Assembly: GCA_003140935.1 (NCBI GenBank)
Contig: PLLJ01000037.1
Location: 1 to 62,525 of the forward strand
Length of the DNA: 62,525 nucleotides
Direction: 5' to 3'
Source of the DNA: Candidatus Omnitrophota bacterium
GTDB taxonomy: Bacteria; Omnitrophota; Omnitrophia; Omnitrophales; Aquincolibacteriaceae
Of this stretch, positions 16,825 through 51,850 are shown one piece after another. A model generated the notes under the pieces. It worked only from the letters and a program-made list of their open reading frames with translations, did not search any database and was not told the DNA's origin. A program made the translations under genes and the position numbers. Every line of letters begins with the position of its first letter. The stretch's first letter is position 1.

Positions 16825-16911
16825 TTTTGTTTTCCGCTTTCTTTACTTTAAAAGCGGTTTATGTATACTATCCCCCTGCTTTCCATCGTGAGCTAAATAA
16901 AGGGTCCGCCT

Positions 16912-17337
16912 ATGAAAAAAGAATTTTGGGTGATACTTGTTCTTGCGATTGCCGCAGCGAACCTCGGCATGCGGTCCAGTGACCAATATGACCAAGACGC
17001 GCGTGAGCAGGAAAAGATCCAGAAACAGATCGATAAAGAGACCCAAGTCCCCGAGGAACGCCACCCTGCAAAGAATTTTGCCACCGGCGTTAAAGAAATG
17101 ACGGTCGATAACGTCAAAGACACGCTTGAGGACACGGCCCATGGCACTATGAGCGAGAAGCCCGTGGTCGGGACACTGGACGGAACGCAACAGGCCGGAG
17201 CGAAGGTCGTCGATAATACCATCAAAGGCGTGAAAAAGGTCGCCTCCCTCGGTTACGCGAAGGACGATAGTTACGAGATCGAACAACCCCAAAAAGGTTC
17301 CGGCGACGCCGCTAAGATCAAGCTCTTCAAGTTTTAA
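16912..17337 (+). CDS. Hypothetical small secreted/periplasmic protein
   Basis: 141 aa with a signal-peptide-like N-terminus (MKKEFWVILVLAIAAANLG), a hydrophilic body, and a rho-independent terminator downstream. The antisense ORFs look like shadows. Confidence 0.5.
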   Translation: MKKEFWVILVLAIAAANLGMRSSDQYDQDAREQEKIQKQIDKETQVPEERHPAKNFATGVKEMTVDNVKDTLEDTAHGTMSEKPVVGTLDGTQQAGAKVVDNTIKGVKKVASLGYAKDDSYEIEQPQKGSGDAAKIKLFKF

Positions 17338-17736: not shown

Positions 17737-20700
17737 TTAAGCTGCTACGGCGAAGGCGAGAGTGGCGTTATAACTTCTCTGAAGGGCGTTCACGAAGGAC
17801 TCGGCCACGATCCAGAATCCATCCCGGCCCTGGCTTATTTCCCGCAGCCGCGCATCTTCCCCGCCGGACCACGCCCAAAGAAGCGCTGCCGCCAGGGTCC
17901 CGCCGTTTTGCCCCTGCGTTTTAAAGAAAGAGACTCTCTTTCTCAAACGCTGGACCAACTTCTGGGATGGAAGGATCTTTTTTGAAAGATGAATGTTCGG
18001 CGTGCCTGGCCGGTCAAAACTGATCTGAGCCCCGGCAAGGTCCCTGTCGGTCCTCGTCACGCGATCAAGCTTCAGCAAAGCACCAAGCTCTTTATCTTGC
18101 ACTCGGCCGCGCTCGTTATAGACCACGATCCGGACCCCCCGGCCGGAAAGCGCCGCGTAAAAATATTCGTTCTTCTGAGCCACAGAAAGATTCGGAAAAT
18201 CCTCGGCGTCCACGAACACCGTCGCCGTCTGCGTGCCCTTGCGGATCGCCTTCACCATCCGGTCCGTCCTGTCCCCGCGAACCTCCGAACGGCGGTCTTG
18301 AACCACGGATGATGTTTCCGGGATAACGCTAGGTGTGTTCGTTCCCCGTTCCCCGTTCCCCGTTCCCCCGGATATTTCTTCCACTCCTCCCTGCACCTGT
18401 GGCGCAGTCCGCATCTCGGAGCGACCTGTTTGTGCTCTCCGATAGACGTTCCGGATCTCCGAACGGGCTGGACCTGTTGCATCGGGCGCTGAAGACTCAA
18501 GAGCAGCGCATAGATTATGAATGACTGTGAACATGGCTTCGATATCTTCGTTTTTAAATCCATAGAAATCGATCAGATCTTGCCGTTTCTTTTCGATGTA
18601 TTCGATCACGTTCTTTTCATTTCGTCCTTCGTCAGAAGCAAGGGTTTGCGCGCCTTTTGTCTTATACATCTCCGGTCCCCGATTGACCAGGAACTGCCAG
18701 GCAAGGTCGACCAGCCCATCGATCCTGTGTTTACCATCATTCATCGAAGCTATCCGCTCTTCTAGTTGAAGGTTGGGATCATAGAATCGATTACCCAACC
18801 CGGGCCCGTCTGATGTGTCCGCGATCCCGATCTTGGCTTTATTTTTCCAAAGCGCATAGATCCTATCCGGGTCAAGCGCTGCGGAAAGGTTATCAGCATC
18901 ATGAAGGAGCTTGGCCCCGAATGATAGTTCTTGCAGGAGCTTTTTCAAATGTCCATCGAGGACTCTCATGACCCCCTTGATCTCCTCCTCGTTCAAACTG
19001 CCGTCTTTTTTCAGTATCGATTTCATCCAGATGATGGAATTGAGGTCATGGTGTTCGCGATAAAGGATATTCGATAGATCATGGAAAATAACCGCGTAAC
19101 ATAGGGCCTTGGGATCGACTTCTACCGCCGAAAAACCGCCGCGATTCTCCGCTTTAATGATTTTCAAGCAATAGAGCAAGTCGTCCAGGCTATGAGAAAA
19201 GCCATGCCCCGACACGAAGGTCCTATCCTTATAAAACCGGCTGAAAAGGTGCGCCGGAATCCAGCGCTGAATGACCCTCATACATTCTTTGATCGTGGCT
19301 ATCACCGTTTCCGGATTCTCCCCGATCGCATGAAGTACGTTCCGAATCTCCTTGTCATAATCCTTGTCAGAATCCGAAGGCAGCGATATGTCCGAATCTG
19401 GCTGGGGTTTATCCGCGACAAGGCTGGAAAAGAGCTGCCCTTCTTTTGCTTCATTCGTCAAAAATCTTTTTTGCAGATCGGAGATCTTCTTATCATCAAG
19501 GTCACGTGCCTTGATCGTTTCTATATATTTTTCCAATGTGCCGATCTCCCGCGCTTCGGAGCTGGCGTCTTGCTGATTTAAAGCACTTTTCTGAAATAAA
19601 TAATCCTCCGGGATCTGGATATAATGTTTAAATTGATCCGGGTCTGCCCCCCCCGGATTCCACGACGGTGATTTTTCCCAAGTCCCGTCCCGTGTATAAG
19701 CCTGATTTTTATTGTTGAATAGTTTCATGGCGCGGATCCGGATGATCGAGTAGTCCTTCAGCTCATCCTTCATGACACTGTAAACACCCGGATCGTCTGT
19801 AAGCAGCGACTGAAAGAAAGTGTGCCCGCTATAGATCACTAATTTTTTCCCGGTTTCCAAAGCTCCGCGCAAATTTTCAGCCATCAGACCGATCTCATAA
19901 GCGTCATATTCATCCGGCAATATCACATCTTCTTCATTTACCTCAATCTGCCCGGAAAGCCATGGGAAATCCTTACCTCGGGATAAGCGCCCCGCCAAAT
20001 ACGATTTTCCAAAACCCGATCCTCCTTCGATCACCAACAAAACACGAGAATCGAGCGTCCGGATAATATCCCCCAGCTTTCGGATCCCTGCTTCATATTC
20101 GTAGGTATCTTGAAGGGACCTCGGATCAACACCTTCCCTAAGAAACATATCGATTTCACTCGCCGATATGCCTTTATCACCCATGACATCACCGCTCCGC
20201 GCCTCAGAGCGCGCGGAGGAAAGCCACTGCTCTTCGTCTTTATTTCTATCCGTCGCTTCCAGATACCGGCGGATCAACCCATTACCGCTCACTTCATTGA
20301 TGTCCACTAAAACGGATAACAGGCCGTCATAAAATCCGACCAGGATCCCGTATTTTTCAAATATTCGGATCGCCAGCTGATCCATTTTTTTTTGATATTT
20401 TCCATCATAGAGGTAAGGCGCTATAACGAGATCAAGATCCGAAGGCGATTTTTTCCCCCGCCGAAGCCCCGCGGCTACGTCGGCGTTTTGTTTAAGAAGA
20501 AGTCCGATCCGCGTCCTCTCGGGTCTTGAAGCAAAACTTCCCGCAAGCCAGAACCCCTGATTTTTGAGGGGAATCCCGGCCTCCTGCCATAACTGCCGGA
20601 GGCCCGTTACCGCCTCGTTCAATGCGGCCTGGTATTGGACAAGCGCAATAGACACTCCCAACTCACTCAAAGGCTGCCCGCTCTCGTCAAAATGATCCCC

Positions 20701-23700
20701 ATATTTCTCGACGATCTCGCGACGAGGCATTGCTCCGAATTGCCTCGTAATTTGAAGGGTTCTGTCCTCCGCGGAAATATTCCGCATCTCGGAGCGGGCA
20801 GGGTCATTGCCGGTTTGCGGAAGAAGACGCGCGCGAACGGTCTGCTCCGGACGTGCGGTCTCTTCTTCTCTCAAAGAAACCGATTGAGAAAGTTTTTGGG
20901 CGATCTGTGGTGCTGCCTGATACGGAACCCGGTATTGATACCGCTCCAATATCCTCAAAACAGATTGCAGGAATTTTTCCGATTTCACTTTATTCAGGGT
21001 TGGAATTCCCGGAAACATCTCCCCAAAATCCTTGTTTAATGCTTTTACCAGAAGATCGAAATTCTGAGGATAGTCTTTCGCCAAATAATCGATCCCGTAA
21101 AGATAAAGGGTTAGCTTGGCTTGAGGGGTCAATCTTGCCAAGAGCGTTTGAACTTCTTCCGGAGGCCGGGGAACCCCTCTGTCCTTATAGAAAAGACTAT
21201 AAACAGGCCGGACCGTCATCACGTCCCGCTCGGCATTGATCGCTTTCACGATCGCCTCCGTCCCCTCCTCGACCATGAGCGTAGTATCGATCTTATTCTC
21301 GAATTTTTCATCGCCAAAACCTTCCAGGCGGACAAGCGCGTAGGGTTGTATTCGGGTAGCCCCCTCCCGTTCTAAAAGTTCCAACGATTTCGCAAGGACG
21401 CTCCCGGTCATGAAAGAGTCGTCCAGTAAAATGACCTTTTTCCCCTTCAGCGGTATCGATCCTTCGAACCCCGGCGAGTCATGCGGGATAAACCTTACTT
21501 CCCTGGACCTTTCTTCGGGATTCGTATAACCCACATTAAAATACCGTGCTTGCCGTGCCGGATTGGCGGCCACTCCCTGGTCCAGCAATCGCTGAGAAAA
21601 AATATAATGGGGAAGACCCAATGCGTCGGAAATCTTCCTGGAAAATAGGGTAACCCCGTTAGGCAACCTCACGCCGGAGAGACTGACGATCACCCAGTCC
21701 TTTTCTGATCGGCCGATCTGGCTCCCCAGATCGTCCCTTATTCGTTCGATAAGCCGATCCGAAAAATAGTCGACCGCTTTGGGATCTCCGTATTTTAATT
21801 TAGAATACAAAAGCCCCAGCTCGGATTCTGAGGGAGATCCTTTCGTGATGTTGAGCAGGATGGTGGGAGGATACCGTCCAAAGATCTCGTTCCTCATCTC
21901 ACTCCGAACCTTACCCTTCTCCAATTCTAAGGGGACAAAACCGGCTTTTGACAATAGCTCGGTTTCTTTAGCGGGATTCAGGCTGGCCGCACTCACGCCC
22001 TGATCGATCTGGAGCTCGGTGAGGTCGTCCCTGTCCGGAGAGACCGTCACGGCGCCTAAGGATTCAAGGACATGCATGCTGTGATTTTCTCCGAGGACCG
22101 CGCCGACTGTGGTGATCGGACCGTTTGGTTCCCCGTAGGAAACGATCACACGGCCTTTCATCATGGCGGTCCAATGCGGAATCTGCGCGTCCTGCAGGAC
22201 TTTGACGAACTTCATGGCCGCTTTCGTGAGCTTTTCCGTGTCCGTATCTTCAAAAATGGCATGCGTAAGCTGCCAGGACTTGATCTTCGAGACCTTGACG
22301 GCATCCAGCGTGCCCTGCACCTCCGCTTCCGGCAGAAGCTTCTCGACCGGCAGGTCGATCGTCGTCACATGAATGTGAAGGTGATTGACCGTATACCAAT
22401 CGGTGTTCTGAAGGAATTTCATCCGGGGGTTTCGTTCCGCGAGGTCCAGTGAGGTTTTCATGTCCCCTGCGGTCAAAACGTTCGGCCGGACGCTCTCGGA
22501 GATCATCAGCGTGTGGAACGGCACGGTCAGGTCCATGGGCGGGACCATGTAATAGACCTTGTCCCCGGCCGCCACGGTCGCGAGGATCCCGCGCGGAACA
22601 AGGAACTTCTCTTTGATCTTGTTGAAATTAAAGTCGTCGAGGTCGAGCACCCGGACCGGCTTCAGCCCCTTGGGATTCGGGTTTTCCTGGACACGGTCCT
22701 TTCCCTTGATCGTGGGATCGAGTACCAATAAATATTTCCCGACGGGCTTCGACGGCGGGACCGGATGCGTTTGCACGTGGGCATTTCCCTGCCACGCCTG
22801 TTCAAAATATCGTTCAAAACCCTCCATGCTGAGCGGTTCGCCCTTCTGTCCCGACAGCTTCGTTTCCCGCATCTCGGAGCGGAACACGGAACGGGCATTG
22901 CGGAACGCTTGCTGATGGAATGCATTAAGTGTGGTCCATTTCGTTTGTTGATCGCCTGCGATGCTTTCTTTCCCCATCTTCACAATGACGTTTTCAATAA
23001 CCGATAGGACCTTGTCAGGGTCTTCACCCTGTTTTCTCACCTCTACCGCAGTCAATTTAACAAATTTTCTGAAGAAATCCGGCGCCTTTTCGAGCACCAA
23101 TCCCCGGATTTCCGGCACAAAGTAATAATCCGGATCACAGTTTTCTAAAAGCTTTCCTAGCAAAAACTCCAAAACGTCTGTGTGAACAGCCCATATTCTT
23201 TTTTCGCGATTCAAAATAACTCTCAAGCGTTTATTTATTTCTTGGCCTTTTTCAAAATAAAAATCGCTATCATAAAATCTGTCCGTAAAACTACAGAGTT
23301 CCACAAACCGCAACCATTTATGCTCGTCAAAAAACCGCTCGTATTTATGATAAAGCTTTCGAAAGATTCCGAAGAGAGCGTATTGAATAAATCGAATCAT
23401 TCTCACGACAAAATTCTGATCAACATTCCCTTTTAAGATGTTAAGCGGGTTCTTCCGCCACCGAATGTCCATAGTGATGCTTTTCAATCTTCCGAGATTT
23501 TCCAGCTCAATGTATGTGTCTGCATCGTGAACCAATTTCGCTCCGAGACTATCCGGCTTCGGCTTGCCTTGTCCATCATTCGCATAACCGTCCGGATAAT
23601 TTTCAGCATTATAAGTTTCGGGAACACCCCTGTGCCCGCGAATAACGTCTTTCACTTTGCCGATACGCTCATCGGTCCAACCCACACTCCTCAATATGTT

Positions 23701-26700
23701 TTCTGCAACTTTAGCTCCCTCCTCGTGATGGTTTTTCCGCTGCTCATGACCGGTAGAATCAAGGCCTTTGATATCATGTAAGAAAGCTCCTGCCGCAAGA
23801 GCTTCCCGATCCACTTCAAAGTGAAACTGATTCGCCCATTCAAAGACCTTCTTTGTCACATGCAGGCTGTGCTCAATACCGTGCTCAGCATTTTCATAAA
23901 ATTCTTTGAACTCGCTTGAGGAAAATTGCTCTTCGGACAGAGATTCGATGGCCCGCATTATTTGCTCGATCGGTCCCGTCGGAACCGTCATCCCTTTAAA
24001 GTATTCTCTCATTCGCTGAATATGTTGATCTGTTATCTTGCTCTTCTCTCGTTCTACAGGGGTTGGTCCCCGCATCTCGGAGCGGCTGGAATCCGTCCAT
24101 GGCTGCAAGACTTCCCCGCCATACTCGCGGAAAGCAAAAGTCAGTATGAGTTCGCGATAATCTTCACGAACAGGTTTTTTTATGCCTTTAGGAAGCAACT
24201 TAAGGTTGAGAAGTAAATCCGGATCGAACTGTCTTTTTAACTGTGCGAGATACTTTCCGGGCTTTATATTTCCCGGCCCCCAAATTCTTCGCATTTCACC
24301 CGTGATCGCATCTTTTTCCCGGACAGCCCGCTCGTAAGCTCCCGCTTTTTGCAGGAATTTTTGAATTTTCTTTTCGGGAATTTTACCGGCCCACATAAGG
24401 ACCTGCGACGCATAGCCCGCGCCCAAAAATTCACCCCCCTTTTTCCTCGACGGTAATTCGAGCCGATGCTGCTTATACCAATGCAGGAATGCGTCAAAAT
24501 CCTCGAACCCGGGAGCGCTTTGGATCGAGGCCGACTGCTCTGCATACTCATATCCCGAGGCGTTAAGTTGGAAACGCTTCAGTTTGTTTTCGGGGATTTT
24601 CCCGGCATGGACAAGCACCAGCACGGTCGTCCCGGCACCCAGAACTTCGGCGGGATCCTTTCGCGAGATCAATTCCGATCGATGTTCTTTATACCAACGG
24701 ATAAAAGTTTCAAAAGTTCCAAAGGAGGGCGCCTTTTGGATCACCGGGGAGTCTTGAGCATAATCATAGGCGGAAGAGTTCCTCTGAAACTCATGCAATT
24801 TCTTAGTCGAGATCTTCTGGGCGCGGACAAGGATCAAAACCACCGTCCCCGCACGAAGTGTTTCCCGGGGATTATCGCGGTAGCCCAGTTCATGCCGATG
24901 AGTTTTATACCAATCCATGAAATCTTTGAATGTTTCAAAGGACGGCGCTTCTCTAACCACATCCGAACCCTCCACATACTCGCATGCGCCGGCACTTCTT
25001 TTAAAATCCTCCACTTGATGACCCTGGATTTTTTCAGCTTGCGCAAGCACCTGGACCGCATAGGTCGCACTTAGAAACTCTTTCGCTTTGTCCCGGCTTG
25101 GAAGTTTTGACTCGTAGCGGATGTACCAACTCCAGAAATCATCAAATGTTTCCATGACAGGCGCACTTTGAATGACCGGAGATTGCTCGGCATATTCCCG
25201 CGCCCCCAGATCAAATTCGAACGATTGCTGTTGCCCTGACGGAATTTTTCCCAGCGCAGCGATCACTTGCAGTACTGTTTTTGCATGCAAAACTTCCTGA
25301 GGATTGATACCGGATAGAAATTCGGAACGGTGTTTTACGTACCAGTCCCAGAAGTCTTCGAACGCCTCAAATGACGGCGCAGGGTCAAAAAGCCCCCTGC
25401 TTTTTTCATAATGCCTCTTCGAAGAACCTTCCAAAGAATCCTCCCGCACCTCGGAGCGGGAAATGCCATCGTCGCTGAATGCGCGAGTGGCCTCCCGTAT
25501 TTCACCGACGGTAATTCCTTTTTTTCTGCCTAAAGACGGGTGATCAGGTGTGGGAGACGCCAGCATCAAACGCACCATCCAGTGCGACAAACTCACATGT
25601 TTTTCCGGGTTCAATCCATCCGTGCCATAGACCACCCCAATCTTGCTATCTGGTTCACTCCACCAGTAATTCGGATATTTTTCCCGAAGAACAAAAATCT
25701 CGTCCATCCAGCGGTCGGGACAAGATTCGACGGTGATTCCTCGTTCTTTCACTTCTCTTAAAAAAGCCTCATCGATGTCGTTCGCTGAAAACCATGCCCA
25801 ATCGCCGTCTCCCGTTCGAGTGTAGGCAACCGCTCCCTTTCCAGCAGGACTAAAGATCCGCCCGTGTCCGATCCGGTCAACGATGGGGCCAAAAGCTTTC
25901 AGGTGCGCACGAACAAACGCCTCATGCCCTTGCCGGTCCCATGCCGGCCCCGCCGCAAAAAAATCCCCGAGATGAGTCGTAATGATATACCCTGAGTCTT
26001 TGAGCTCACGAAGGTGTCCGGCCACTTCTTGCAAGTGATAAAATGGTCCGATCTCGTCTTCCTTCATAATTCGTCGCTGTTTCCCTTTACCCACTGAGAA
26101 CGACTCGACGCCGGAAATATCAATGCCCCGAAGCCGTTCGGCGTAGATCGTTTCGCCGGCGGTTCGCTTCAATTCTTTCAGGATTTCGAATTTTTTATCC
26201 CAGCCCTCTCCCCATTTAACCCCGCTCATGCGTTCCCGCGCGAACGAGAACATAAAACGGACTTTGTGATGGATCCCCCCATCCGTTCCCAAAGCACGGT
26301 CCGCTTCCTTCTCCGTATCCTCAAGCGCCTTGGAAAGTTTCGTCAGAAACTTTTTAAGATCCTCCGGCGCCAGTTGCTTTCCAACGGTTTTATAGGGATT
26401 GAATCGAAGTTCAAGGTCATAAATCCCGTCTGCGAAATTTTGGCTCGCGATATTCTGGATCACACGGATAAAGGCCGGCTGAAACAACTGCCGGGCCGTT
26501 TCCCGCATTCCCGCCTCAGGCGCATTGTCGACGATCCATCCAAGAGTATCCAGCCACACATCAAAGAGCTCTCTTTTTCCGCGTCGCGACGTTTTCATAA
26601 AATTTTCCAGTGCTTGGATCGAAATATCCTTTTCATCTGGAAACTGCTCTAAGAATTTCAAAAAAGCTCCGTGGGTAGCCGCATATTCGCCGGTCAGCTT

Positions 26701-29028
26701 TTCTTTTTGCACCTTAATGTATTCCTTCATGGCCGTCCGGTAATAACCCGGCTGAAATTTACTGCTAAGACTCGCCATTTCATCATGGATCATCTGAAGG
26801 GGGATCGAAGCACTAACGTGAGTATGCCGCTCCTTCTTGGGCCACTGGCGAACCATTTCGATTAGGGCTTGATAGGCGAGATTACGGGAAGGAAATTTGT
26901 TTAAATGAAAAATCCTTTGAAAGAACATCATCAGATGGAGAATCGCGTTAAGAATGATTTTAGAGATACTTAAGACTGTGGGACGTTTGATCTTACTTTC
27001 TAAGAAGCTGGAGTAATAGGTGAAAGGATCGATCTGCCGGAGCAATTGATTAATAGCGCTCGTTCTTACATAGTCCTTCAATATTCTCGGATCGTTTTGG
27101 GACTCTTTAAGAATGTCTGCAAGATATGCGCCCGGATGATCGCTCGCAATGGATTCGAAGACCTGAGAAAGAGCTCGAACTTCAAGAAGCCGCGCCTTAT
27201 TAAAATAGTCCCCTTTTTTCATTTGGAGCTCGCCCCACAAGATCGGCGTTTGTTTCAAGAAAAGCTCCGCCGCCTCATCATCTTGGCTTCTCTCTCGTAC
27301 CTCGGAGCGGCGATCACTCCTGGACACCTCTGAGGCGGATACGGTCCCAGAATGCGCAAGACGTTGTTCGATCAGCGGCGTTGCGGAATAAACGCCAAGG
27401 GCTTCCACTGAAGAAACGATCGCGCGGAGTTCCGCATTCACCGGTTGTTCTCCGTTCGTGACGGCTTCAAAAAAGGTGCTGGGGGGACGGTTCGCACGGG
27501 CCGCAAGAAAAGGGACTTCGAAAGAGTAGTGGCCCACGGACATGAGCTGCTTGTAGTCTTCCTGGTGTTTTTTATCGATCCCGGTGATCGCCGGCGAGAT
27601 CACGGCATAAGAGATCCCTTTTGTCCGCAATAGTTCCTTGATATTGTTGGCGTGAAAACCGCCGTACACCAGCACCGCGGGTGCGGCGTTCGCGGAACTC
27701 GGGACTCGGGATTCGGGACTCGTGCCGAAAAAACGATCCAGTGCCTTAGCGAGCGCGCTATCGCGCTGTAAGGCGATCTCATAAAACCGTACCGCATCCT
27801 TAATATGCCGTTCCCACTCTTTCGACAGCACCAGGGACCGGTGCGTGAGCGAGACGATAAAATCCGCCAGTTTTTGAGTCTCGAATTTCCGAAGCATCTC
27901 TTTGACCGCTTCATATTCCGGCTGGGTCAGCTCGATCCGGTTCAGCCGGTTAAGAAGGCTGAGAGCCTGATAATAGGTGAAGATCCGCCGTTCCCGTTCG
28001 GTCCCCAGATAAGCCTCGGAAATATCCCGCTCAAGCCGCTGGATCTCCCCAAAAACAACCGAGGAGTCCAGCGCGTTCAGTTGTTCGATCAGTTCCGGGT
28101 TCCGGGCCGTTTGGGCCGCGAGAAGCAACGATACTGCGGGATAATTTTTAATGAAAATCGCCGGACCGCGGTCCGAAGGATAGAAGGTTTGAAGCTCTTT
28201 CAGATAGTTGAGGATCGGCAACTTCCCTTCCGTAAAACGTTCTTTCACTTTGAGGCAGGCTTTCAGGGCCTTCGGAAAGTGCCGGTCCGCAAGATTCGAG
28301 ATCTGAGTGAAAAGCTCTCTCAGGTCCTCACTTGTATCTGTTCTACTTTTTGAGGCATCACGGTAGGATTCGATGTTCTCGCCGTACAACTTGAGATCCT
28401 CGACGCCGATCAGATCGAATGCGCCGGTACGGTTGATGTGAGCGTATTCCGCTCCGCCGATGCGGAGCTTATCCAAGAGGAAATAAGAAACTTTTTGTCT
28501 GACCGCAGGATCTTTGATGAATCCGAAGAACTTGTCTGTCGGAACGGGGCCTTCGTAGCCTTCTTCAAAAACTGTTTTAATCCCTTTCTCTTTCACGAGC
28601 AGGCCGATGATCTTGGCCATATTCTCCTGGGCTTCGAGGGAATCGTGGGCGTCCTGGATGAAAACGATCGTTTTCTCAGACCGGGACTCGGGATTCGTAG
28701 CTCGCCTGGCTCTCATTAATTCTTTATCGGAAGCCAGTGCAGCACTTTCAGTGCGGGACTCGTTTTCGTTCCGCGTTTCTCGAGTCCCTAGTCCCGAGGA
28801 ACGAGTCCCGGCTCGATAGATTTCATCGATCGAGCCGAGTTCTTTGGGTATCGAAAGGGATGCCGGATCGGAAGCAACTGTTGTGACTGAAGGACTTGCA
28901 TAACCCTGGGGAGCATAGCGGGTAGCATCGAACAAAGTAAAAGCAATAATGACAAATGCCGCCGTGACCCGGCGCCAGAAAAGGCCGTTTTGCCATGTTT
29001 TATAAGAGGTTTTTGTCCCAAATATCAT
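17737..29028 (-). CDS. Giant 3,763-aa membrane-anchored multidomain protein with nucleotide-acting modules
   Basis: A single uninterrupted ORF of 11,292 nt with an N-terminal signal anchor (FWRRVTAAFVIIAFTLF). Motifs seen:
- deaminase-like: YDLELRFNPY, RIGHG, ITVESCPD, VYGTDG
- HD 1: FLHDIKG, LVHDAD
- HIT-like: NHLHIHV
- PRTase: VILLDDSFMTGS
- nucleotidyltransferase: LAGSFA...SDLDLVI
- Walker A: EGGSGFGKS
- HD 2: VIFHDLSN, LLHDADN
It also carries five 72-aa tandem repeats and ten R-S-E-x-R punctuation motifs. Confidence 0.9.
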   Translation of the reverse strand: MIFGTKTSYKTWQNGLFWRRVTAAFVIIAFTLFDATRYAPQGYASPSVTTVASDPASLSIPKELGSIDEIYRAGTRSSGLGTRETRNENESRTESAALASDKELMRARRATNPESRSEKTIVFIQDAHDSLEAQENMAKIIGLLVKEKGIKTVFEEGYEGPVPTDKFFGFIKDPAVRQKVSYFLLDKLRIGGAEYAHINRTGAFDLIGVEDLKLYGENIESYRDASKSRTDTSEDLRELFTQISNLADRHFPKALKACLKVKERFTEGKLPILNYLKELQTFYPSDRGPAIFIKNYPAVSLLLAAQTARNPELIEQLNALDSSVVFGEIQRLERDISEAYLGTERERRIFTYYQALSLLNRLNRIELTQPEYEAVKEMLRKFETQKLADFIVSLTHRSLVLSKEWERHIKDAVRFYEIALQRDSALAKALDRFFGTSPESRVPSSANAAPAVLVYGGFHANNIKELLRTKGISYAVISPAITGIDKKHQEDYKQLMSVGHYSFEVPFLAARANRPPSTFFEAVTNGEQPVNAELRAIVSSVEALGVYSATPLIEQRLAHSGTVSASEVSRSDRRSEVRERSQDDEAAELFLKQTPILWGELQMKKGDYFNKARLLEVRALSQVFESIASDHPGAYLADILKESQNDPRILKDYVRTSAINQLLRQIDPFTYYSSFLESKIKRPTVLSISKIILNAILHLMMFFQRIFHLNKFPSRNLAYQALIEMVRQWPKKERHTHVSASIPLQMIHDEMASLSSKFQPGYYRTAMKEYIKVQKEKLTGEYAATHGAFLKFLEQFPDEKDISIQALENFMKTSRRGKRELFDVWLDTLGWIVDNAPEAGMRETARQLFQPAFIRVIQNIASQNFADGIYDLELRFNPYKTVGKQLAPEDLKKFLTKLSKALEDTEKEADRALGTDGGIHHKVRFMFSFARERMSGVKWGEGWDKKFEILKELKRTAGETIYAERLRGIDISGVESFSVGKGKQRRIMKEDEIGPFYHLQEVAGHLRELKDSGYIITTHLGDFFAAGPAWDRQGHEAFVRAHLKAFGPIVDRIGHGRIFSPAGKGAVAYTRTGDGDWAWFSANDIDEAFLREVKERGITVESCPDRWMDEIFVLREKYPNYWWSEPDSKIGVVYGTDGLNPEKHVSLSHWMVRLMLASPTPDHPSLGRKKGITVGEIREATRAFSDDGISRSEVREDSLEGSSKRHYEKSRGLFDPAPSFEAFEDFWDWYVKHRSEFLSGINPQEVLHAKTVLQVIAALGKIPSGQQQSFEFDLGAREYAEQSPVIQSAPVMETFDDFWSWYIRYESKLPSRDKAKEFLSATYAVQVLAQAEKIQGHQVEDFKRSAGACEYVEGSDVVREAPSFETFKDFMDWYKTHRHELGYRDNPRETLRAGTVVLILVRAQKISTKKLHEFQRNSSAYDYAQDSPVIQKAPSFGTFETFIRWYKEHRSELISRKDPAEVLGAGTTVLVLVHAGKIPENKLKRFQLNASGYEYAEQSASIQSAPGFEDFDAFLHWYKQHRLELPSRKKGGEFLGAGYASQVLMWAGKIPEKKIQKFLQKAGAYERAVREKDAITGEMRRIWGPGNIKPGKYLAQLKRQFDPDLLLNLKLLPKGIKKPVREDYRELILTFAFREYGGEVLQPWTDSSRSEMRGPTPVEREKSKITDQHIQRMREYFKGMTVPTGPIEQIMRAIESLSEEQFSSSEFKEFYENAEHGIEHSLHVTKKVFEWANQFHFEVDREALAAGAFLHDIKGLDSTGHEQRKNHHEEGAKVAENILRSVGWTDERIGKVKDVIRGHRGVPETYNAENYPDGYANDGQGKPKPDSLGAKLVHDADTYIELENLGRLKSITMDIRWRKNPLNILKGNVDQNFVVRMIRFIQYALFGIFRKLYHKYERFFDEHKWLRFVELCSFTDRFYDSDFYFEKGQEINKRLRVILNREKRIWAVHTDVLEFLLGKLLENCDPDYYFVPEIRGLVLEKAPDFFRKFVKLTAVEVRKQGEDPDKVLSVIENVIVKMGKESIAGDQQTKWTTLNAFHQQAFRNARSVFRSEMRETKLSGQKGEPLSMEGFERYFEQAWQGNAHVQTHPVPPSKPVGKYLLVLDPTIKGKDRVQENPNPKGLKPVRVLDLDDFNFNKIKEKFLVPRGILATVAAGDKVYYMVPPMDLTVPFHTLMISESVRPNVLTAGDMKTSLDLAERNPRMKFLQNTDWYTVNHLHIHVTTIDLPVEKLLPEAEVQGTLDAVKVSKIKSWQLTHAIFEDTDTEKLTKAAMKFVKVLQDAQIPHWTAMMKGRVIVSYGEPNGPITTVGAVLGENHSMHVLESLGAVTVSPDRDDLTELQIDQGVSAASLNPAKETELLSKAGFVPLELEKGKVRSEMRNEIFGRYPPTILLNITKGSPSESELGLLYSKLKYGDPKAVDYFSDRLIERIRDDLGSQIGRSEKDWVIVSLSGVRLPNGVTLFSRKISDALGLPHYIFSQRLLDQGVAANPARQARYFNVGYTNPEERSREVRFIPHDSPGFEGSIPLKGKKVILLDDSFMTGSVLAKSLELLEREGATRIQPYALVRLEGFGDEKFENKIDTTLMVEEGTEAIVKAINAERDVMTVRPVYSLFYKDRGVPRPPEEVQTLLARLTPQAKLTLYLYGIDYLAKDYPQNFDLLVKALNKDFGEMFPGIPTLNKVKSEKFLQSVLRILERYQYRVPYQAAPQIAQKLSQSVSLREEETARPEQTVRARLLPQTGNDPARSEMRNISAEDRTLQITRQFGAMPRREIVEKYGDHFDESGQPLSELGVSIALVQYQAALNEAVTGLRQLWQEAGIPLKNQGFWLAGSFASRPERTRIGLLLKQNADVAAGLRRGKKSPSDLDLVIAPYLYDGKYQKKMDQLAIRIFEKYGILVGFYDGLLSVLVDINEVSGNGLIRRYLEATDRNKDEEQWLSSARSEARSGDVMGDKGISASEIDMFLREGVDPRSLQDTYEYEAGIRKLGDIIRTLDSRVLLVIEGGSGFGKSYLAGRLSRGKDFPWLSGQIEVNEEDVILPDEYDAYEIGLMAENLRGALETGKKLVIYSGHTFFQSLLTDDPGVYSVMKDELKDYSIIRIRAMKLFNNKNQAYTRDGTWEKSPSWNPGGADPDQFKHYIQIPEDYLFQKSALNQQDASSEAREIGTLEKYIETIKARDLDDKKISDLQKRFLTNEAKEGQLFSSLVADKPQPDSDISLPSDSDKDYDKEIRNVLHAIGENPETVIATIKECMRVIQRWIPAHLFSRFYKDRTFVSGHGFSHSLDDLLYCLKIIKAENRGGFSAVEVDPKALCYAVIFHDLSNILYREHHDLNSIIWMKSILKKDGSLNEEEIKGVMRVLDGHLKKLLQELSFGAKLLHDADNLSAALDPDRIYALWKNKAKIGIADTSDGPGLGNRFYDPNLQLEERIASMNDGKHRIDGLVDLAWQFLVNRGPEMYKTKGAQTLASDEGRNEKNVIEYIEKKRQDLIDFYGFKNEDIEAMFTVIHNLCAALESSAPDATGPARSEIRNVYRRAQTGRSEMRTAPQVQGGVEEISGGTGNGERGTNTPSVIPETSSVVQDRRSEVRGDRTDRMVKAIRKGTQTATVFVDAEDFPNLSVAQKNEYFYAALSGRGVRIVVYNERGRVQDKELGALLKLDRVTRTDRDLAGAQISFDRPGTPNIHLSKKILPSQKLVQRLRKRVSFFKTQGQNGGTLAAALLWAWSGGEDARLREISQGRDGFWIVAESFVNALQRSYNATLAFAVAA
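24298..25377 (-). repeat. Five tandem 72-aa (216-nt) coding repeats inside the giant ORF
   Basis: The units start PSFEAFEDFWDWY, PVMETFDDFWSWY, PSFETFKDFMDWY, PSFGTFETFIRWY and PGFEDFDAFLHWY. Each has a conserved F..F..WY..HR.EL ... AGKIP core. Confidence 0.85.
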
Positions 29029-49960: not shown

Positions 49961-51850
49961 TTAAAGTGCGTACACGCCTTTTTCGCCCGTACGAATGCGC
50001 ATAGCGCTTGAAGCATCGAACACGATGATCTTGCCATCCCCGATACTCCCGGTGCGCACGGCATTGGTAATCACTTGCATGGTCTTATTGACATCCCAAT
50101 CCCGGACCAGCACTTCGATCTTCACTTTCGGCTGAAACCGGATCGTTTCCTCATGGACGGGCAGGTCCTCTTCCGTCTCACCTTTTTGACGCCCGAAGCC
50201 GCGAACGTCAGTGACGGTCATGCCCACCACGAGTTCTTCCCTTTTAAGGGCCGCGGCCACATCTCCGAGCTGTTCGGGACGGATTACACAGGTCACTACC
50301 TTTACGCGGTAGGTTTTTTGAACGCTTGTGAGAAGCACATAGAACACACTGACCACTGCCCAAGCGCCGGCAATAATGAAGCATATCCGGGCTTCCGCCT
50401 TCGCGTCCGCATTCCCGATGATGTACAGATACAGGATGCCGATCACCATGACAATGTTGGCGATCAATCCTAACGCCGGGATCCAGCCGTGCTTCACAGC
50501 ACTGAAATCTTTGCGTTCCTTGAACGCGACAATGGTCCAGATGCAGGTCAGCCCGTATAAAATGAAAGTGCCAAGGTTCGACGCAAGCGTGATACCCGTC
50601 AGACCCACGACCGACCGCACACCGACTCCCGCAATGATGGAAGAAACAACGACCAGCACCCACAAAGCGATATGGGGCGTGCTGAACCCGGCATGCATGA
50701 AGCCCAGCATCTCCGGCAATTCCCGGTCTTCCGCCATGCCGCAGGTCACGCGTACCGCCGTGTTCATACAGCTCAGGGTCGTTCCCACGATCGCGATGGC
50801 CACCGTAAGCGCCATGGTGATCATCAATCCGAACCCGATCCCGGGGAGAACATTATCCCCTAACAGTTTTGCAAGATCTCCGATCGGAGCGCTTGATGCC
50901 GCCGCGGCCGCCATGCCGGTCACGGTAGCCGCTGGAGTTCCAGTCACGGCGGTTAATTTTTCGTTGATCATGAATCCCGCGGCAAAATATTGCAGCAGAT
51001 ACGCCGCGACCCCTTGAATAAGCAGGGAAAGGATAATGGCCTTAGGGATCGTATTCCCGGGATCTTTTGTTTCGGCGGATAAGGCCGTGCAACTTTCGAA
51101 CCCGACCAGGATCAAAATGGCGATGGTCGATTGCACCAGGACCCCTTGGAGTGAATGGATCTTGAAAATGTCAAAGCCGCTCGCGAACGCCCATTGGGTC
51201 GCGTGCTGAGGATTTGTGATGCGATAGTAGATGGCCAGGACGCTGAAAACGACCAGCGCCATTAATTGGATGATATTGATCCAGATATTCGTTTTCGTGG
51301 AACCGCTGACACCGCGGAAAGCGATATAGCCGGTGATTCCCGCGAAGGCGATGCCAATCAAGGTCAATGCATCGGCCGAAAGAGTGTGTCCCGTAAACTG
51401 CGTATAGATGTAGCCGATCAATGTCGCCATGAACGCCACCATGATCCCGGGATAGACCCAGTAGAACAGGTGAGCGGACCAGCCCGTGAGAAGTTTGGCA
51501 AAACGCGCAAGAGACGTCGGGGTATTATGGGTTTTATGCGTGGCACCCGCCTTATCCAGGAACGCTTTTTCCGCGAAATAACAGCAGCTTGCAAACCCGG
51601 CTTCCGGGTAAAGTTTTGCAAGCTGGGCATACGCAAGCGCCGTCAAAAAGGCCACGATCAGCGCGAGCACAATGCCGGGCCAAATATCGCTGGCAACCGA
51701 AGCACCACTCGGGGAGGTCGCAGCCGCTTGTAATTGATAAGTGATCCACAAGAACGCTCCCGGCGCGATCAACGCCATGGCATTCATCGTCGCGCCGAAA
51801 AGTCCCAGCGTCGGCTTGATATCCCTTGATGTGATGGTTTGTTTTGCCAT
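49961..51850 (-). CDS. APC-superfamily permease fused to a C-terminal P-II-like domain
   Basis: 629 aa. The first ~515 aa are polytopic membrane protein with an APC-like pattern. The last ~112 aa (about 49964-50305) are PII-like, with T-loop VRGFGRQKG and GDGKIIVF...MRIRTGE. Confidence 0.8.
   Translation of the reverse strand: MAKQTITSRDIKPTLGLFGATMNAMALIAPGAFLWITYQLQAAATSPSGASVASDIWPGIVLALIVAFLTALAYAQLAKLYPEAGFASCCYFAEKAFLDKAGATHKTHNTPTSLARFAKLLTGWSAHLFYWVYPGIMVAFMATLIGYIYTQFTGHTLSADALTLIGIAFAGITGYIAFRGVSGSTKTNIWINIIQLMALVVFSVLAIYYRITNPQHATQWAFASGFDIFKIHSLQGVLVQSTIAILILVGFESCTALSAETKDPGNTIPKAIILSLLIQGVAAYLLQYFAAGFMINEKLTAVTGTPAATVTGMAAAAASSAPIGDLAKLLGDNVLPGIGFGLMITMALTVAIAIVGTTLSCMNTAVRVTCGMAEDRELPEMLGFMHAGFSTPHIALWVLVVVSSIIAGVGVRSVVGLTGITLASNLGTFILYGLTCIWTIVAFKERKDFSAVKHGWIPALGLIANIVMVIGILYLYIIGNADAKAEARICFIIAGAWAVVSVFYVLLTSVQKTYRVKVVTCVIRPEQLGDVAAALKREELVVGMTVTDVRGFGRQKGETEEDLPVHEETIRFQPKVKIEVLVRDWDVNKTMQVITNAVRTGSIGDGKIIVFDASSAMRIRTGEKGVYAL

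Follow-up and report, generated by a model that had tools for sequence, protein, structure and literature searches.

In a 62,525-nucleotide stretch of a Candidatus Omnitrophota genome (GenBank assembly GCA_003140935.1, contig PLLJ01000037.1, positions 1 to 62,525; hereafter the window), a single giant open reading frame (ORF) on the minus strand (17737..29028) starts with ATG and encodes 3,763 amino acids (aa) plus a stop. It is free of internal stops across 11.3 kb and is preceded by an in-frame stop five codons before the ATG, just as an earlier sequence-only reading of this DNA had delimited it. The product is a chain of separate enzyme modules, enclosed between a conserved N-terminal and a conserved C-terminal module and divided at its junctions by the pentapeptide R-S-E-x-R. 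The same architecture is found in a family of relatives, in which the motif is over-represented many times, blocks of homology end close to it, the cargo between the ends is rapidly replaced and cysteine is heavily depleted. The reading favoured here, to which we give about an even chance, is that the chain is an exported polyprotein that would be processed at the motif, freeing swappable enzymes against a host or prey cell, and that the copy in the window would be directed at nucleotides. A polyprotein precursor was among the options that the sequence-only reading had put forward, and it is this option that the family-wide evidence favours.

The pentapeptide at the module junctions

The motif R-S-E-x-R occurs ten times in the giant ORF as against 0.1 copies expected, and no other real ORF of the window contains it. 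Single copies form junction motifs 1 (RSEVR, aa 574-578, 27295..27309), 2 (RSEVR, aa 1191-1195, 25444..25458, with an 8-bp hairpin-like match), 3 (RSEMR, aa 1649-1653, 24070..24084), 4 (RSEMR, aa 2050-2054, 22867..22881), 5 (RSEMR, aa 2375-2379, 21892..21906), 6 (RSEMR, aa 2745-2749, 20782..20796) and 7 (RSEAR, aa 2940-2944, 20197..20211), all of which were recognized from sequence and, like every feature of the chain located below, are on the minus strand. The last junction is triple (18277..18465) and consists of RSEIR (aa 3522), a 9-aa spacer, RSEMR (aa 3536), a 39-aa spacer and RSEVR (aa 3580). These sites are real module boundaries, and they split off every module that the sequence-only reading had named.

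The behaviour of the motif in the family was followed in 77 non-redundant ORFs totalling 185,618 aa. The general form R-[SAP]-E-[VMLAI]-R is present in 352 copies against 4.6 expected, which is an over-representation of about 75-fold, and forms in which K replaces R or D replaces E do not rise above background (1-6 copies). The residue at x is V, M, L, A or I, and the flanks show no conservation beyond a preference for small residues ahead of the motif and acidic ones behind it. Consecutive motifs are separated by a median of 286 aa and close pairs are common, 47 of the 284 gaps being shorter than 60 aa. Of the ends of homology blocks between family members, 27% fall no more than 5 residues from a motif, compared with 2.5% of random positions, and the median distance to a motif is 20 residues as against 137; the junctions that adjoin the N and C modules are marked by motifs as well. 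Some lineages carry one variant throughout, namely RAExR in L015 (with ten RAEVR), L016, L042 and L003, and RPExR in L080, and such whole-ORF switches are the pattern expected if the peptide co-evolves with its reader. Two giants, L022 and L026, are nearly devoid of the motif and repeat SGFGA (a GFGA motif) instead. Those flanking ORFs that bear motifs all end like the C modules of the family and are further members of it.

A bias is also present at the nucleotide level. Codon usage in 296 R-S-E-x-R motifs of the 77 ORFs favours (C)CGC TCC GAG RTG CGG, an element of about 16 nt whose synonymous positions carry 0.3-0.56 bits; the first arginine is encoded by CGY in 83% of motifs (38% in the background), the serine by TCN in 96% (70%) and the last arginine by CGG in 46% (24%). 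The free positions all favour a 4-bp CCGC/GCGG stem around an 8-nt loop, the full stem being present at 34.8% of sites versus 26.9% after codon shuffling (z 3.9), and at one window site (25440-25463) the stem extends to 8 bp. The idea of an RNA hairpin was nevertheless rejected, since the signal of covariation is faint (z 2-4), shared descent confounds it, and the minimum free energy (MFE) of folding at the motif does not differ from that of controls. Part of the synonymous bias could be frozen ancestry; under purifying selection there is no route from a TCN serine codon to an AGY one or back. We also considered whether translation might start internally at the x codon and discarded the idea on inspection: x is often GCG, GTT or CTT, and the sole bases that resemble a Shine-Dalgarno sequence (GAGG) directly abut this codon with no spacer.

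Conserved ends, probable export and exchanged cargo

The N-terminus is predicted to be a Sec signal peptide (aa 1-44, 28897..29028), with K6, K10, R19 and R20 in the n-region, an h-region of 13 residues (VTAAFVIIAFTLF) and a c-region ending in GYA/SP. The family shares this layout of a K/R-rich n-region, an h-region of 13-19 residues and AxA-type sites (AFA/Q, ALA/Q, GYA/SP). The calls of signal peptides and topology are heuristic and use sequence layout and a simple Hessa-scale sum, by which the h-region of the window protein is not transmembrane (TM)-like. Because of this sum and of the AxA-type sites, a cleavable Sec signal peptide is more likely than a stable signal anchor, and the description of the chain as membrane-anchored in the sequence-only reading has become doubtful. 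The only other hydrophobic stretch of the protein (aa 685-703) was considered as a TM helix and is probably not one, its Hessa-scale sum being +2.9. The placement of the chain outside the cytoplasmic membrane, which had also been proposed, is supported indirectly, by the signal-peptide features and by the scarcity of cysteine. This residue accounts for 0.15% of 181,855 residues in family ORFs and 1.04% in flanking ORFs, a seven-fold depletion, and for 0.24% of the window protein as against 0.98% in its neighbours. In L002, the one relative examined in this respect, nine of the 4,223 residues are cysteine, three of which form the radical-SAM cluster triad. Cysteine seems to have been purged save where catalysis requires it, which fits a chain that crosses or resides in an extracytoplasmic compartment and is yet enzymatically competent.

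The conserved N module (aa 45-573, 27310..28896), defined by homologues, alignments and an AlphaFold2 (AF2) model, has an alpha/beta core and a large helical insert of about 220 aa; the predicted local distance difference test (pLDDT) score of the model is 79. For the N-terminal 573 residues the protein database yields 45 homologues, and the module matches 131 metagenome loci, 80 of which were fetched; most are long ORFs that run off contig ends, and they contain the same junction motif. Invariant residues in the alignments are D126, H128, E155, E156, D165, E194, H197, R200 and H459. The sequence-only reading had found this block faintly ChaN/Tiki-like, and weak signals in that direction do exist: the top Foldseek matches in the PDB are erythromycin-esterase-like (3b55/2rad, E 0.03-0.1), with ChaN 2g5g lower (E 0.64) and all of them weak; DUF5694 matches 3 of 19 trimmed N-module cores at 0.01; and one family sequence matches PF04187 ('Tiki superfamily, ChaN') at 8.5e-5, a match that may lie in the N module or in cargo. 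Profile searches of the PDB do not add to these signals, and the relationship is not established. The DAH...EEG...GGFH series of the module resembles the GxxH...E...GxxH pattern of the Tiki/TraB/ChaN/erythromycin-esterase superfamily, from which the module differs in the helical insert and in the weakness of all scores. Within that superfamily, protease activity is known for Tiki alone. Free-standing N modules are also observed on long contigs, at L017:10001-11047 (349 aa) and L059:10001-11137 (439 aa); both are complete ORFs with a signal peptide and without cargo, and therefore the module has an autonomous role. Always present, provided with enzyme-like invariant residues, presumably first out of Sec and also free-standing, the N module would be the obvious, if thin, candidate for the protease.

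At the other end, the conserved C module of about 180 aa (aa 3585-3763, 17740..18276), which in the family ends in ...[S/T][S/A]A, is modelled by AF2 as a Rossmann-like alpha/beta fold (pLDDT 82) and terminates in ...AFAVAA-COOH. It has 13 homologues. A single C-module superfamily closes 27 of the 35 complete family ORFs, following a motif wherever this was checked, and nearly all of these ORFs terminate in [S/A/T/G][A/S/T]-COOH, usually -SA or -AA (29 of the 35). The 39-aa spacer that precedes the final RSEVR and the C module contains a perfect heptanucleotide repeat (GGGAACG, 4.1 copies, 18340..18368). Gain or loss of one unit would put the C module out of frame, so that phase variation is possible; in L002 the repeat is only degenerate. 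In syntenic relatives (L084:5200-5400 and L085:690-890) the frame shifts at an A6 run shortly before the last RSEMR, and two assemblies therefore annotate the C module as a separate gene of 173 aa; at L038:6300-6330 the giant ORF is interrupted by a stop and reopens 9 nt downstream. That the C module had naturally become an independent gene in L084 and L085 was considered and rejected, the break there being a frameshift and not a clean boundary; the breaks at the three loci could be pseudogenes, sequencing errors or programmed events.

Between the two ends of the window protein there are seven cargo modules. The proposal of the sequence-only reading, a single polypeptide of separate and mostly nucleotide-directed enzyme modules, is supported, and every motif that it quoted is present at or within 1 nt of the position it gave. 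Cargo 1 (aa 579-1190, 25459..27294; core aa 711-1182) is of the adenosine-deaminase (ADA) family and includes GIDISG, RIGHG (25861-25875) and VESCPD (25714-25731). Its HxH metal site had not been seen before and is located in RHTHVS (aa 734-739, nt 26812-26829). Alone, the module falls below the PF00962 threshold and has no Pfam match. An exhaustive search yields 37 relatives; 20 were aligned with it, and 14 of the 21 aligned members match PF00962 (best E 1.9e-17). The profile made from the module and the 20 relatives matches 37 adenosine-deaminase PDB chains, among them ADAL 8qch as the best (7.4e-18), 8fnv and the CRISPR-associated ATP deaminase Cad1 (9c67, 9ebt), and with these matches the deaminase call holds; ATP-deaminase defence effectors are thus among the relatives. 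The metal ligands H735/H737 (HxH), H1019 (HLGD), H1055 (RIGHG) and D1136 (TDG) are near-invariant in the alignment. The likeness of cargo 1 to ADAL, Cad1 and RADAR RdrB thus consists in the profile matches to their structures and in the retained HxH, H, H and D ligands, and the difference in HLGD for the canonical HxGE (Asp for Glu) and TDG for TDD. Close relatives share both substitutions, which make the activity and the substrate of the module uncertain.

Cargo 2 (aa 1196-1648, 24085..25443) consists of five 72-aa tandem repeats (aa 1215-1582) plus a tail and is DUF7753-like, the repeats matching this family at threshold. Cargo 3 (aa 1654-2049, 22882..24069) is an HD phosphohydrolase (HD1), as had been called: it scores 42.6-46.3 bits against PF01966 (cut-off 22) and has the complete H...HD...D motif (H1720, H1751-D1752, D1835/D1837) in HSLH, FLHD and HDAD, with FLHDIKG within 23764-23784. 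Cargo 4 (aa 2055-2374, 21907..22866), with NHLHIHV at 22366-22386, is a HIT/GalT/Apa2-like candidate; it matches NCBIfam GalT at E 0.04, a PDB profile search gave only Apa2 (E 0.63), and its relatives in L013, L006, L072 and L002 retain an HxHxH-type motif. Cargo 5 (aa 2380-2744, 20797..21891) resembles type I phosphoribosyltransferases (PRTases). In favour of the call are the canonical phosphoribosyl pyrophosphate (PRPP) loop VILLDDSFMTGS at 21400-21435 and a match to the C-terminal region of PADLOC PsyrT (2.2e-6 over 148 residues); in Pfam, PF00156 reaches 22.7 bits, below the cut-off of 26.3. Cargo 6 (aa 2750-2939, 20212..20781) is a possible nucleotidyltransferase (NTase) on the basis of a GS ... 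DLD motif, with LAGSFA at 20530-20547 and SDLDLVI at 20422-20442. The spacing between GS and DLD is 32 aa and fails the pol-beta pattern hG[GS] x9-13 Dh[DE]h, and the sole profile match is DUF6932 (E 0.045); the module may be a divergent nucleotidyltransferase. Finally, cargo 7 (aa 2945-3521, 18466..20196) includes a Walker A region (GGSGFGKS; EGGSGFGKS at 20002-20028) followed by a second HD-like domain (HD2) with FHD and HDAD motifs (VIFHDLSN at 19069-19092, LLHDADN at 18889-18909). As an isolated module HD2 gives only a YfbR-like match (E 0.2); the Pfam HD match of the whole protein includes a second stretch, which may lie here. The HIT, nucleotidyltransferase, Walker A and HD2 calls of the sequence-only reading accordingly stand on motifs or on E-values of 0.04-0.6. 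A PDB search with the whole window protein returned nothing beyond HD and PRPP synthetase, and scans with PADLOC and PHROGs returned only the PsyrT PRTase match. Judged from these comparisons, a chain of nucleotide enzymes is indicated in which the deaminase and HD1 are confirmed, the PRTase is partly supported, HD2 is weakly supported and the remaining three are plausible and unproven.

The cargo of the family is replaced rapidly and wholesale, even where genomes are nearly identical. Complete family ORFs reach about 4,200 aa, that of P0060 has 7,976 aa, and up to about 15 cargo modules are present. When the ORFs are cut at the motif, 349 modules are obtained that fall into 208 clusters, with 177 singletons. 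The hom protein encoded beside the giant is 97% identical among the window, L002 and L084, whereas homology between the giants of the window and L002 is confined to the N module (68%), HD1 (59-61%) and the C module (70% over a BLAST block including the linker, 91.5% over the module itself), and that between the giants of the window and L084 to the C module alone. HD1, in a homology block bounded by motifs, is the only cargo common to the window and L002/L010. The cargo of L002 includes an ARMT1-like phosphatase, a B12-radical SAM module, a GlnD-like NTase, a sugar transferase and GT4, and that of L010 a PPDK-like module. Across the family, 121 non-redundant cargo modules match 35 Pfam families, each once or twice, and all of these are cytoplasm-type enzymes or signalling domains. 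The nucleotide theme noticed in the sequence-only reading is thus true of the window copy and not of the family, as relatives carry glycosyltransferases, radical SAM enzymes, methyltransferases, kinases and others. With its constant head and tail and its swappable cargo, the family behaves like an arms-race locus. Several members can be present in one genome and are sometimes adjacent, as with L021 and L041 on contig Ga0182027_10001512 and with L039:1903-9090 beside L039:9881-; one diverged paralogue of 2,395 aa has a recognizable N module and an -AA tail.

Genomic setting and authenticity

The window is ordinary chromosome. On one side of the giant ORF are uvrB, valS, the aspartokinase gene, thrC and hom, and on the other an MsbA-like ABC exporter, lpxB, gltBD, carB, a porin and kdp genes; Rfam has no match in the window. 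In a scan with one genome per species, relatives were found only in metagenome-assembled genomes (MAGs) of Candidatus Omnitrophota. A search for relatives and their synteny, as the sequence-only reading had suggested, gave the 131 metagenome loci and no shared neighbourhood, since no gene family recurs in more than 7 of the 46 loci with enough flank. For the same reason, a protease, secretion or immunity gene dedicated to the giant and placed beside it was discarded. The upstream ABC exporter was also discarded as a type I secretion partner; it adjoins lpxB and is not conserved across family loci, for which reasons it looks MsbA-like. Between the giant ORF and hom there is an ORF of about 141 aa (window 16912-17337 on the plus strand, or 16843-17292 on the minus strand), which is annotated in L084 and L085 too, as a gene convergent with the giant; the 141-aa and 149-aa ORFs downstream of the giant have no Pfam match. 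Elsewhere in the window, 49961-51850 on the minus strand encodes an amino-acid permease with a P-II nitrogen-regulatory domain fused to its C-terminus.

The composition of the giant ORF differs from that of its surroundings. It had been described as AT-richer by eye, and its GC content is indeed 0.505 compared with 0.536 in the remaining window. The difference is clearer in GC at third codon positions (GC3), which is mostly 0.66-0.78 in flanking genes and forms a mosaic of 0.47-0.73 across the modules: HD1 0.47, most cargo 0.52-0.56, the HIT-like module 0.73 and the C module 0.69. Such a mosaic fits an origin of the modules in different sources. Independent copies were traced through the 90%-identity cluster of the window protein, which includes two more sequences of 3,763 aa that differ from it by 1 and 2 residues. 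The protein is recorded from NCBI, JGI/IMG, ENA and Logan, on at least five contigs from four sources and up to 209 kb long; a single contig of 12.5 kb interrupts the gene, within the 72-aa repeat block. The giant ORF is not an assembly artefact, and the concern about its continuity (a frameshift, a stop or a chimera), which the sequence-only reading had raised, is answered by the recurrence of the same product in independent assemblies.

Competing readings and known systems

If the chain is a polyprotein, it would be threaded through Sec, the pentapeptide would serve as a proteolytic processing site and the modules would be freed outside the cytoplasm of the producer. The cut could be made by the N module (Tiki/ChaN/erythromycin-esterase-like), as the part that leaves first, or by a protease that is not linked to the gene, and the released cytoplasm-type enzymes would work on a host or prey cell from within or from outside. 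In the window copy, the deaminase-like, PRTase, HIT-like, NTase-like and P-loop modules together with the two HD modules would deplete, modify or salvage the nucleotides of the target, by deamination, dephosphorylation or phosphoribosyl transfer. A wider proposal, which we advance only tentatively and regard as rather less probable than its negation, is that a hitherto unknown Omnitrophota system for secretion and processing uses R-[S/A/P]-E-hydrophobic-R as its code for cleavage: a Tiki-like N protease, first to pass Sec, would cut the chain into a dozen cysteine-free effectors for delivery into host or prey cells, cassettes would be exchanged in frame at the motif, and the same code would account for the conversion of the giants of 10-150 thousand amino acids (kaa) into working parts. 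Several points weigh against the polyprotein. Its cleavage is proposed from sequence statistics and no protease was found; no neighbouring gene is conserved across the 46 loci; and the link of the N module to the Tiki/ChaN/Ere superfamily is weak (Foldseek E 0.03, TM-score below 0.2), two PDB profile searches with this module having given no match. Foldseek with the C-module model gave generic matches and no specific one. Further hydrophobic segments, some of which may span the membrane, are present in 41 of 74 relatives, and the signal-peptide and topology calls for the family are heuristic, as said. The synonymous-site bias of the motif hints at an additional role at the level of nucleic acid. 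Lastly, radical SAM, receiver, HPr and PPDK-like cargo would be useless in the periplasm, so that the model must postulate a further, hypothetical step that delivers them into another cell.

Part of this evidence could be accommodated by an uncleaved multi-enzyme scaffold, tethered or periplasmic, in which R-S-E-x-R would be a linker or a docking motif bound by a partner. The published class of 'multi-enzyme metabolic cluster' proteins shares the phylum, the signal-peptide/TM bias and the mixture of enzymes, no protease was found, and the motif is located in unconserved linkers. A plain linker, though, would not call for fixed R, S/A, E and R from which K and D are barred, nor for lineage-wide switches from S to A; motifs set in twos and threes, 9-39 aa apart, are more readily explained by spacers that are cut out than by docking, and the periplasm offers cytoplasm-type enzymes no substrates. 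The scaffold is for these reasons an unlikely explanation. In another reading the chain would stay in the cytoplasm, anchored by an uncleaved N-terminal helix, and the cargo would be the producer's own housekeeping or regulatory enzymes; in its favour, the cargo requires ATP, PRPP, SAM or Fe-S clusters, and the ORF is set among core genes such as hom, thrC and lpxB. What makes this distinctly improbable is the N-terminus itself, with positive charges before the h-region and AxA-type sites after it, the seven-fold depletion of cysteine and, unlike housekeeping enzymes, the wholesale replacement of cargo beside flanks that are 97% identical.

It is also conceivable that the motif is mainly a signal in nucleic acid, a hairpin or recombination core of about 16 nt for in-frame cassette exchange or a translation pause, of which the peptide would be a by-product. 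This would account for the synonymous bias, the excess of the CCGC/GCGG stem over shuffled codons and the homology breakpoints at the motif. The peptide, however, is kept across switches of codon family (AGY for Ser, AGR for Arg), the x position is variable and yet hydrophobic, covariation and folding energy do not speak for a structure, conservation does not extend beyond 16 nt and no recombinase is linked to the loci; we consider this reading very unlikely. Finally, chimerism of the assembly, or the decay of a gene fused from unrelated parts, might be suspected from the GC3 mosaic, from the contig that splits the gene and from the frameshifts or stops in L084, L085 and L038, a suspicion that is hardly tenable for a product that is the same in at least five contigs from four sources, runs for 11.3 kb without a stop, keeps its catalytic residues and has an architecture found family-wide.

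Omnitrophota are ubiquitous host-dependent nanobacteria with the largest predicted proteins in biology. In the cited literature they appear as host-dependent epibionts or predators, and a cleavage of their giant proteins was proposed by West-Roberts et al. 2023 (10.1101/2023.11.21.568195), who stated the cleavage points as unknown. Nielsen & Lui 2026 (10.64898/2026.06.07.730766) defined the 'multi-enzyme metabolic cluster' class among proteins of at least 10 kaa, with a signal-peptide/TM bias, and do not mention cleavage, motifs, linkers or polyproteins. The family described here resembles these giants (those of Nielsen & Lui and the Archaeovorin/Dockerin-type of West-Roberts) in phylum, in signal-peptide/TM bias and in its tiled HD, HIT, NUDIX, methyltransferase and kinase domains, and the window protein has the same origin, a predicted signal peptide and many enzyme domains. 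It differs in length, the catalogues covering proteins of at least 10,000 aa and the window protein having 3,763 aa, and in that the published descriptions are without the junction motif, the conserved N and C modules and the polyprotein concept. A full-text literature search for the motif and for Omnitrophota polyproteins found no description of the junction motif or of head and tail modules. Giant multi-enzyme Omnitrophota proteins are already published, although neither they nor the phylum of origin were known to the sequence-only reading; the new elements are the junction code and the head and tail modules. The 7,976-aa representative P0060, reached via the deaminase module, has 18 motifs; the motif therefore probably extends into the published giants, and there may be overlap between the two sets of proteins. 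Whether these giants work intact or as polyproteins is a question for which the motif provides a concrete and testable candidate cut site, and it also gives a rule for dividing them into units for structure prediction. If the polyprotein reading is true, bacteria would have a new way to package and diversify effector enzymes, which the window copy would exemplify for nucleotides, with kinship to ATP-deaminase and HD/PRTase conflict enzymes.

Among other known systems, viral polyproteins, Porphyromonas RgpA/Kgp/HagA and the multi-core precursors of ribosomally synthesized and post-translationally modified peptides (RiPPs), such as PatE, also have a short repeated recognition sequence flanking each unit; they differ in having other proteases, other motifs and homogeneous cargo. 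We know of no bacterial polyprotein with about 10 unrelated enzymes per chain. Polymorphic toxins (CdiA-CT, Rhs, MafB) similarly join a conserved delivery part to hypervariable enzymatic cargo, and in them VENN or DPxGL marks the swap point, which is often the cleavage point. Theirs is a single C-terminal toxin tip with an adjacent immunity gene, whereas here there are many internal modules, and the 46 family loci have no conserved neighbouring gene that could represent immunity. The MARTX toxins of Vibrio and relatives are very large secreted chains of several effector enzymes that are released by cleavage between modules. They leave by type I secretion without a Sec signal peptide, and characteristic of them are glycine-rich repeats and an internal cysteine protease that is activated by InsP6 and cleaves behind Leu; the window protein has no Pfam match to RTX-type glycine-rich repeats or Peptidase_C80, and its family is distinguished by a Sec-type N-terminus and by R-[S/A/P]-E-hydrophobic-R junctions. 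In both, unrelated enzyme cargo lies between conserved end regions and is reshuffled between strains, and in its mode of working the family may, by analogy, be likened to MARTX-type multi-effector polyproteins.

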